From the NCBI GenBank assembly GCA_934667425.1, contig CAKULV010000007.1, positions 3,022-67,021 of the forward strand: a stretch of DNA of 64,000 nucleotides, in the 5' to 3' direction. The DNA is from an uncultured Kiritimatiellota bacterium. Lineage in GTDB: Bacteria; Verrucomicrobiota; Kiritimatiellia; RFP12; UBA1067. Positions 32,307 through 33,830 of the stretch are shown here, piece after piece. Numbering within the stretch: the stretch's first letter is position 1; every line of letters starts with the position of its first letter. The notes under the pieces were generated by a model. That model saw only the letters and a program-made list of their open reading frames with translations, searched no databases and was not told where the DNA came from. Position numbers and translations under genes: made by a program.

Positions 32307-32427
32307 CGCGTGTTGGCCGCGCAGTTGAAACTGTCGACCACAGCGTCGTCCACAGGCACCTCTATTCCCTTTGCATTCCGCCTCAATGCAGATTCCGCTG
32401 TCTATTCGCCATGGAATTGAATAAAGA

Positions 32428-33088
32428 GTGCTTGACGGCGTTCCTGTCCGCGTGTATTCGGCGGCGAAGACGGTCGCCGATCTCTTCAAGTTACGAAATC
32501 GCGTGGGGCTTGAAATCTCGATCGGTGCGCACAAGGATGGACTTCGCGAGAAGAGGTTTTCTGTCGACGAATTGATGAGGGCTGCGGACGTTGATCGCGT
32601 GCGTCGTATTGTCATGCCTTATGTGGAGGGCTATTTCGGATGAGGAATGTCGTTGTGAGCATCTTGGAAATGTTCGTCTGCCAATGCAATTCGCTGTCGG
32701 AATTGGCGACGCGGTGACGCCGAGCGCTCGCAGGGCAGCATTTCCTGTGTTGCTCGGCATGGATATCCCGAAGATTCTCGTCTATCCGCGTGAGACGTAT
32801 GTCGTGGAAGAGAATGTCGGACGCTCCACGATGCCGATCGAGCTTGCGGTCAGGCATCCAAATGCCGCCAACCGCCATTTGCTAGCCATCGAGTTTGACG
32901 GCCCCATGTATGCATCGCAGAAAACCATTCGAGACCGAGACGTTTTGCGTCCGGCCATATTGGAAAACCTGGGATGGAAGCACTTCCGGCTTTGGAGCAT
33001 GGACTGGGTGTTTGACCGCAAGCGTGTCCGGCAGCGCTTGCTGGATGCGCTTGATGGATGTATGCGAGATTCTGTCTTAACGGATTAA
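32428..33088 (+). pseudogene. frameshifted and truncated AbiEi-like/DUF559 (Vsr-fold endonuclease) gene remnant
   Basis: Frame 1 (32428-32643) reads ...VPVRVYSAAKTVADLFKLRNRVG.... Frame 2 (32591-33088) ends with the DUF559 signature LLAIEFDGPMYASQKTIRDRDVLRPAILENLGWKHFRLWSMDWVFD. There is no intact N-terminus. Confidence 0.4.
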
Positions 33089-33123
33089 TGCCGCATTATG
33101 CCTTTTCTTCCTCACGGCCATTT

Positions 33124-33155
33124 CCCTTCTCACTTTTTGCAAAAAGTGAGAAGGG
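33124..33155. repeat. 32-bp perfect palindrome CCCTTCTCACTTTTTGC|GCAAAAAGTGAGAAGGG
   Basis: Visible directly in a 575-bp stretch that appears non-coding. Confidence 0.8.
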
Positions 33156-33645
33156 GTGTCCTCAATGGAAAGACTGTCTGGCAGCTGCCTTACGGTACGG
33201 TAACATCGACTCGGCCGTCTGCTTGAAGCGGTTTATCGACTGGAGCCACTACCGCCCGGAGAATCGTGAGATTATGCTTCGGACTAAAACTAGAGCTAGT
33301 TGCAAAACCTTCGCGGTTGCGGACGGGACAAGCCCGTCCCTCCCGAAAAACACCGAATTTTCACAATCTTGCGAAGATACTGGAGGGGGTGCGCTCGGCC
33401 CCTTGCGGCCCTGCGGGTTCGCTTTGCTCAGGCAACCCGACGCCTACGGCGCGGGCGAATCTGTCGCGACCGAGGTTTTGCAACTGCTTCACCATAATAT
33501 TGCTTCGGCAATTAATGTTGTCGATTCCGTTGGGAGGGCGGCACCCCGCATCGAGCCGCCTTCGGCGCTCGGTTCGCCCGGGGGATGCGTCCCCAGCCCG
33601 CATTGTGAAATATGAGAAGCCGTTTCCGCAGTGGGAACTGCTTTT

Positions 33646-33654
33646 GGTATAATA
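33646..33654 (+). promoter_or_regulatory. extended -10 TGGTATAAT, 10 nt before the ATG of the fragment ORF
   Basis: tggtataat at 33646-33654; ATG at 33665. Confidence 0.4.
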
Positions 33655-33664
33655 TCGGGCATCT

Positions 33665-33793
33665 ATGAGAGATGTTTTGCTTGCTCTGGAGGCTGGGCTT
33701 GGAGCTTTTGTGCTGGGATTGAGGCACTTCTCCGAGGGGCTTCCGTCCGTTCGCCGCACGAGATGCGGGAAAAGTCTGTGGCCGATTGGCTGA
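33665..33793 (+). pseudogene. 42-codon remnant homologous to the N-terminus of the downstream Na/Pi cotransporter (MRDVLLALEAGLGAFVLGLRHFSEGLPSV... vs MKEIALSVLTVAGGLGIFLLGMKHLSEGLQAV...)
   Basis: Clear amino-acid similarity to the start of the gene at 35353. It terminates after 42 codons. It is not in the ORF track because it is under 60 aa. Confidence 0.45.
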
Positions 33794-33830
33794 AGGCTTC
33801 GCTTGGCATGGCATCTGCGGAGGCGTAACG

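Follow-up and report, generated by a model that had tools for sequence, protein, structure and literature searches.

Gene debris and a dispersed repeat upstream of uvrC in a gut Kiritimatiellota bacterium: the probable decayed margin of a strain-variable island

Mosaics of pseudogenes lie at the edges of variable islands that carry defence or polysaccharide genes, and AbiE type IV toxin-antitoxin systems place the AbiEii gene directly after the AbiEi gene, with overlapping stop and start codons (ATGA). Two further kinds of described element are relevant here: promoters with an extended -10 box that drive leaderless mRNAs, and small hairpin-forming repeats such as REP/BIME, MITE and the Rickettsia palindromic elements (RPEs), whose in-frame insertion within open reading frames (ORFs) was described (PMC10969869). 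All of these bear on positions 32307–33830 of a 64,000-nucleotide stretch of DNA (the window) from an uncultured Kiritimatiellota bacterium, which separate an amidohydrolase gene from uvrC. We conclude with good confidence that this zone is the decayed right margin of a strain-variable island, where the debris of five genes and a repeat has been left by ordinary genome decay and where uvrC has probably captured a promoter.

As in the described island-edge mosaics, fragments of AbiE, of an Hhe-type nuclease and of glf adjoin one another in the zone, close strains show presence/absence differences, and the GC content is below that of the core genome. Unlike in those mosaics, neither an integrase nor a tRNA gene nor att repeats could be recognised here, and the genus is known from metagenomes only and is uncharacterised. 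The GC content falls across 27–32 kb of the window (51% in the island versus 60%). The comparators were contigs about 99% identical to the window, from human-gut metagenomes (Hadza and other cohorts), which were retrieved by exact-protein look-ups; L004/L010 is 100% identical to the window over 16 kb. In a species-level genome collection the closest UvrC proteins, from Kiritimatiellae and Lentisphaeraceae metagenome-assembled genomes, were only 69% identical and there was no synteny with the window, so that conspecific strains are the sole useful comparators. These conspecific contigs vary in the contents of the island and also inside the zone. Three haplotypes of the amidohydrolase–uvrC interval (the window, L001 and L011 types) and the divergent contig L101 differ exactly at 32790–33104 and 33291–33594. 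The features of the zone are collected in Table 1.

Table 1. Features of the amidohydrolase–uvrC zone and related sites (positions are those of the window)
Feature	Positions	Strand	Evidence or remark
Bounds of a hypothetical "empty" allele: ...CGGACTAAAAC on the left, GCCCGCATTG... on the right	within 32300–33850
AbiEi antitoxin pseudogene, C-terminal half only	32344–32643	+	PADLOC AbiEi hidden Markov model (HMM)
AbiEii toxin fragment, internal ~50 residues	32660–32812	+	PADLOC AbiEii HMMs
315-bp presence/absence polymorphism	32790–33104	.	BLAST against conspecific contigs
MTES_1575 (DUF559-like) C-terminal nuclease domain with stop codon	32792–33088	+	Pfam, PADLOC, NCBIfam
Perfect 32-nt palindrome CCCTTCTCACTTTTTG/CAAAAAGTGAGAAGGG, 16+16-nt arms, no spacer	33124–33155	.	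sequence
UDP-galactopyranose mutase (glf) fragment, ~35 codons of the C-terminal third	33184–33290	+	DNA match to L101
304-bp GC-rich block ("cassette 1"), 61% GC	33291–33594	+	alignment, BLAST
Closing inverted repeat, 13 bp perfect (33298–33310 / 33473–33485) plus ~8 pairs	33298–33485	+	encloses hairpin and repeat unit
Small hairpin N7-ACAAG-N7'-CTCCCG	33321–33345	+	further copies
Copy of ~92-nt dispersed repeat, core ~61 nt (roughly 33396–33462)	33381–33472	+	cross-contig matches
Junction dense in single-nucleotide polymorphisms (SNPs)	33595–33616	.	haplotype alignment, BLAST coordinates
Weak terminator-like hairpin	33622–33638	+	terminator scan
Extended -10 box TGGTATAAT	33645–33653	+	sequence; TGnTATAAT motif
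42-codon ORF; codons 5–29 (33677–33751) Na/Pi-like	33665–33793	+	BLASTP, local alignment
uvrC start: Shine-Dalgarno GGAGG 33819–33823, TTG 33831–33833	33819–33833	+	sequence, gene callers
Other TGnTATAAT boxes	4931–4939 (-), 39254–39262, 42460–42468, 57865–57873, 60358–60366, among others

A first-pass annotation made from the sequence alone had found no intact gene in a stretch of about 1.5 kb from the amidohydrolase gene to uvrC, and this holds: by the ORF list and HMM scans, no ORF in the zone covers a family over its full length. It had also described two out-of-frame pieces of an AbiEi-like/DUF559 gene. These are indeed gene debris, but of three genes and not one, encoding AbiEi, AbiEii and an MTES_1575 nuclease domain. 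The AbiEi fragment (32344–32628) matched positions 105–198 of the 201 in the PADLOC profile (E = 4.7e-23). It is interrupted by an in-frame TAA at 32422–32424, and the 71-aa ORF ends with a stop codon at 32641–32643; in L011, GAA stands in place of this TAA, and the ORF there has 120 residues and matches profile positions 83–198 (E = 1e-35). The AbiEii fragment matched positions 130–182 of about 295 (E = 5.9e-10 and 8.5e-9 with the PADLOC AbiEii HMMs). Both were detected by the PADLOC models only, with no match in Pfam or NCBIfam. The direct succession of AbiEi and AbiEii with the ATGA overlap is that of AbiE type IV systems, but neither protein is full-length: AbiEi (about 200 aa when complete) has an internal stop codon and is without its N-terminal, DNA-binding half, and about 50 of the roughly 295 residues of AbiEii, a nucleotidyltransferase, are present.

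The AbiEii fragment is joined in frame to the nuclease fragment within a 165-aa chimeric ORF (32591–33088). The nuclease fragment matched positions 13–96 of the 96 in Pfam PF18741 (E = 2e-22), the PADLOC models PDC-S37 (E = 9e-28) and Hhe (E = 1e-16), and the NCBIfam models ProA (E = 8e-26) and Hhe (E = 3e-20), although its scores of 72–90 bits are far under the whole-protein cut-offs of 1500–2000 of the two NCBIfam models. Judged by these matches, it is the C-terminal nuclease domain of an anti-phage helicase of the Hhe/PDC-S37/ProA type, of which the last ~90 residues alone are present and the helicase body, of more than 1500 aa, is absent.

A 575-bp stretch of the zone had been taken as non-coding, and it turns out to contain a fragment of glf together with a dispersed repeat. 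A search with a spurious 185-aa ORF over this stretch found protein P0002, whose contig is L101. This contig is 96.7% identical in nucleotide sequence to window positions 32744–33290 and then runs into the intact C-terminus of a UDP-galactopyranose mutase (UGM); its ORF in the same frame matches Pfam GLF (130–203 of 203, E = 7e-19), and solved UGM structures match it from residue ~33. Because the DNA match continues into this glf ORF, the corresponding part of the window is assigned to glf. The window fragment alone gave no HMM match, and it falls short of a GLF protein, which has the domain and an FAD-binding N-terminus in about 370–400 aa. Other contigs carry more intact versions of two fragments, the 120-aa AbiEi piece of L011 and the glf C-terminus of L101, which supports the first-pass view of the zone as gene debris. 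In L101 (840–2018) an alpha-2-macroglobulin-like gene with a bMG3 domain, and not the uvrC promoter, comes after the nuclease fragment, the palindrome and glf, an arrangement that hints at an older gene order.

The fifth gene is represented at the right end of the zone. There the 42-codon ORF had been described as similar to the N-terminus of the Na/Pi cotransporter encoded downstream (35353–37068), and the similarity survives a proper alignment: 13 of 25 residues are identical to residues 8–32 of the transporter (BLASTP, E = 6e-7), and the BLOSUM62 local score is 72 versus 27 +/- 4 (maximum 47) for 2000 shuffles. The DNA of the two is 76% identical over 45 nt that are in frame in both, and a second, weaker match of the ORF is to the internal repeat of the transporter. 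The similarity ends at about codon 30 in every frame. The ORF thus holds about 25 residues from the start of the first of the two repeats of a Na/Pi cotransporter (PF02690), and it has no Pfam match.

Box and ORF are located where the first-pass annotation had placed them, with 11 nt and not 10 between TGGTATAAT and the ATG at 33665. The motif TGnTATAAT occurs nine times in the window versus 0.34 expected (~26-fold). Five of the other eight boxes are 6–10 nt before the starts of ORFs of 267–767 aa, and six of all nine are within 6–11 nt of a start codon. Because these boxes sit so close to the starts of long ORFs, this organism appears commonly to use extended -10 promoters that give leaderless mRNAs, and they seem to be the norm in its genome. 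The site upstream of uvrC has a perfect motif with the start codon a short distance past it, as at the five long genes of the window. It differs from them in that the ORF downstream is a 42-codon remnant, with uvrC 166 nt further on behind a Shine-Dalgarno sequence of its own. The uvrC product is called as a protein of 490 aa with a GIY-YIG domain from residue 16.

The first-pass annotation had suggested that the ORF may serve as a leader for uvrC. It is plausible from this layout that what survives of a dead Na/Pi paralogue, its promoter and first ~30 codons, now starts the uvrC transcript, in which case the promoter of uvrC would probably be inherited from a dead transporter gene. The box and the leaderless start of that gene would then be the only part of the zone that is likely to be functional today. 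No further TGnTATAAT is present between 33653 and the box at 39254, and so the transcript launched by the surviving Na/Pi promoter may extend beyond uvrC through the intact Na/Pi gene, an AP-endonuclease-like gene and dxr. For this poorly known gut lineage, the rule of TGnTATAAT followed after 6–11 nt by a start codon could serve as an aid to annotation.

The alternative that the 42-codon ORF encodes a functional small membrane peptide, or is a regulatory upstream ORF, could account for its presence in all haplotypes, for the hydrophobic helix that it encodes and for a promoter-to-ATG spacing typical of the leaderless genes of this genome. We nevertheless consider it unlikely, since the SNPs among haplotypes in the ORF are one synonymous and four non-synonymous, no free-standing homologue was found, and the Na/Pi homology breaks off abruptly at about codon 30.

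The comparison of strains bears on how the debris was assembled. Contig L011 has wholly different upstream genes, yet it is more than 99% identical to the window at 32405–32789, at 33105–33290 and from 33595 onward (BLAST). The junctions from AbiEi to glf are common to every haplotype that covers them, L011 included, and are therefore old; because the island of L011 is unrelated to that of the window, the AbiEi-to-glf debris would predate the present island. The 315-bp segment is present in the window, L004/L010 and L101 and is deleted in L001–L003, L005–L008 and L011. Its presence is taken as ancestral and its absence as a deletion, because the AbiEii homology crosses its left end. In L011, L013 and L015–L018, the 304-bp block is replaced by about 170–176 bp of decayed glf with 48% GC ("cassette 2"). 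The first ~115 nt of cassette 2 align with the intact glf of L101, which argues that cassette 2 is the older state and the 304-bp block the derived one. From 33595 rightward all haplotypes that reach uvrC are collinear, and from ~33617 to uvrC the sequence is nearly invariant among them.

We infer from these data an order of events in which AbiEi and AbiEii, the tail of an Hhe/PDC-S37-type nuclease, glf and a Na/Pi cotransporter paralogue would have been truncated, after which some strains would have lost 315 bp and about 176 bp of decayed glf would have been replaced by the 304-bp block, at whose core are small GC-rich mobile repeats. The first-pass view of the zone as a scar at the edge of the island stands in so far as the debris does lie at the margin of a variable island of lower GC content; in place of a single junction, there is a layered mosaic without the hallmarks of integration. 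Alignment to relatives, which had been proposed to define the junctions, confirmed that the island is variable and placed the onset of collinearity at 33595 and not at the amidohydrolase gene, the recent changes being the 315-bp deletion and the 304-bp swap. A single insertion of the low-GC island, with the zone as the plain attachment or integration junction that it left, would fit the GC drop in 27–32 kb, the strain-dependent content of the island and the truncated genes that abut the island. We regard this as quite unlikely, because the debris shared with L011 is older than the present island, because several independent indels and swaps lie within the zone, and because there is no tRNA gene to mark an integration site, and a repeat search and domain scans brought up no recognisable integrase, transposase or pair of direct repeats. 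A BLASTN search with 33105–33830 against plasmids and phages gave no matches.

Two side observations concern these alleles. In the cassette 2 allele (L011 at ~8105–8125; L013 and L015–L018 at ~70–90) the length of a poly-G tract ranges from G4 to G11 across metagenome assemblies, either through slippage in the pseudogene or as noise of assembly. In the 315-bp-deletion strains L001–L003, L005 and L008 (for example L002 11136–12002), gene callers give a "protein" of 286–288 aa that has no Pfam domain. It is an artefact that GC-rich DNA produces: read in another frame, it crosses the palindrome, the glf fragment, the repeat block, the promoter and the Na/Pi remnant. The "hypothetical proteins" of 175–288 aa that callers place over the zone are spurious.

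The GC-rich part of the zone had been described as structured-looking, and its fold on the + strand is indeed stronger than expected (z = -4.65, versus -0.87 for the - strand). Covariance models, by which this segment was to be checked, gave no Rfam family: there was nothing at the gathering score, and nothing in the block at E values up to 10. A dispersed repeat was found instead. The ~92-nt unit has copies of 91–98% identity in eight other contigs (L100, L102–L108), where the flanks are unrelated. Three of these eight are at contig ends, as is expected of a multi-copy repeat; with that of the window, there are nine copies. A covariance model of the unit gave the window copy 105 bits, with a consensus fold of 26 pairs. 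In the long-form copies the core is within the loop of an ACAAG-type hairpin (head GGTCGCA, tail TGCGACC). Neither the surroundings of the other copies nor the viral contigs scanned showed the 13-bp closing inverted repeat of the window, and the scan of viral contigs for the repeat core was likewise negative.

Three copies of the unit are in frame within long ORFs, namely L107 152–243 (an RHS gene), L106 4285–4376 and L102 6488–6579, where the unit encodes a peptide of the type ..SGCLSEANPQGRKGP.. (protein P0006). In the RHS protein of L107, a 23-residue segment stands in place of one Gly, a net insertion of 22 aa that interrupts a conserved motif between LQGAGG and VGGLL. The insertion is missing from six of eight homologues, several of which are labelled Kiritimatiellae. 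A different insertion is present at the same spot in P0007. Beside other copies of the unit (L100 5790–5830 and 6090–6140, L105 ~1960–2060), there are tandem repeats of the GGTAGTTGGTAGAT type, which together with the units make up compound arrays adjoining genes for LRR_5 proteins.

The small ACAAG hairpin of the block has a second copy at 39141–39165, right after the stop codon of dxr, with a compensatory change in the stem, and there are more in L100 (6254–6278) and L103 (76–101). The copy next to dxr lacks a U-tract and is perhaps a 3' element of a terminator-like or REP-like kind.

Like REP/BIME, MITE and RPE, the unit is short (61–92 nt), GC-rich and hairpin-forming, as the compensatory stem changes in relatives of the small hairpin also indicate, and its near-identical copies occur in many unrelated contexts and break assemblies. 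The in-frame copies inside protein-coding genes are a likeness to RPEs that is seen in other contigs and not in this window. The sequence of the unit is unrelated to the described families. Its copies have neither terminal inverted repeats nor target duplications in common, the copy of the window being itself within the 13+8-bp inverted repeat. The unit is possibly, though we propose this tentatively, a small mobile family of Kiritimatiellae that was not described before, which inserts in hairpin loops, in intergenic DNA and in frame in genes such as those of RHS toxins. If so, some strains would have gained an insertion here recently, and the 304-bp block would be its record. The apparent structured RNA is a mobile repeat and not a riboswitch-like element, and knowledge of a repeat family that can sit in frame within genes could help the annotation of this lineage. 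Nothing in the zone is new in kind, and what it yields besides, a rule for promoters and a family of repeats, is modest.

That the 304-bp block, or 33298–33485 within it, is instead a functional structured RNA (a regulator of the uvrC operon, say, or the msr/msd of a retron in a defence island) is very improbable: the strand-specific fold and the long closing stem of 13+8 bp would suit it, but Rfam gave no match at E values up to 10, the promoter is downstream of the block, which is replaced by decayed glf in some conspecific strains, the central 92 nt of the block are a repeat dispersed in unrelated contexts, ORFs included, no reverse transcriptase is encoded nearby (ORF list and domain scan), and the copies at the locus are so nearly identical that no covariation backs the structure. 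The retron msr/msd had been suggested by the 13-bp inverted repeat and was rejected on the latter grounds of repeat and missing enzyme. Other candidates were likewise set aside. For an integron attC site, the order GTTGC...GCAAC misfits R''/R' on inspection; a likeness to group II intron domain V (GAGCCG...CGGTTC at ~33552) extends over 23 nt only, which is too short; and a CRISPR repeat or tracrRNA does not agree with a single-copy sequence without an array. A second repeat unit at 33532–33594, suggested by 67% identity over 51 nt, was not recovered by the covariance model at E values up to 1.

Several points weigh against reading the zone as a decayed island margin with a captured promoter. 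With no synteny in the closest genomes of the collection, the ancestral state is not fixed by an outgroup. No parent of the Na/Pi fragment turned up, and no database protein shares words with the 42-aa ORF. The use of the promoter and read-through into uvrC are predictions from sequence. Within the 64-kb window the covariance model recovered a single copy of the repeat, and no origin was demonstrated for the palindrome or for the 109 nt at the 3' end of the 304-bp block. Finally, the ORF at 32591–33088 spans almost all of MTES_1575, so that the nuclease domain may retain some residual function.

The palindrome, which lies past the stop codon of the nuclease fragment (33088) and ahead of the glf fragment, is perfect over 32 nt as had been reported, with arms of 16+16 nt; the arms of 17+17 given before count the central GC twice. 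It occurs once in the window and never in shuffles, and it is kept in all haplotypes, the L002 type having one uncompensated C-to-T change. It may once have served as the terminator hairpin of the nuclease gene, although neither strand has a run of T after it and it was not flagged in the terminator scan. In Rfam at E values up to 10, it drew only chance matches of microRNA type.

The low-GC island itself (26719–32306) has the look of a locus for ribosomally synthesised and post-translationally modified peptides, with two radical SAM/SPASM enzymes, the amidohydrolase and several small ORFs. It is mosaic among strains; for example, 28529–30048 is replaced in L001.

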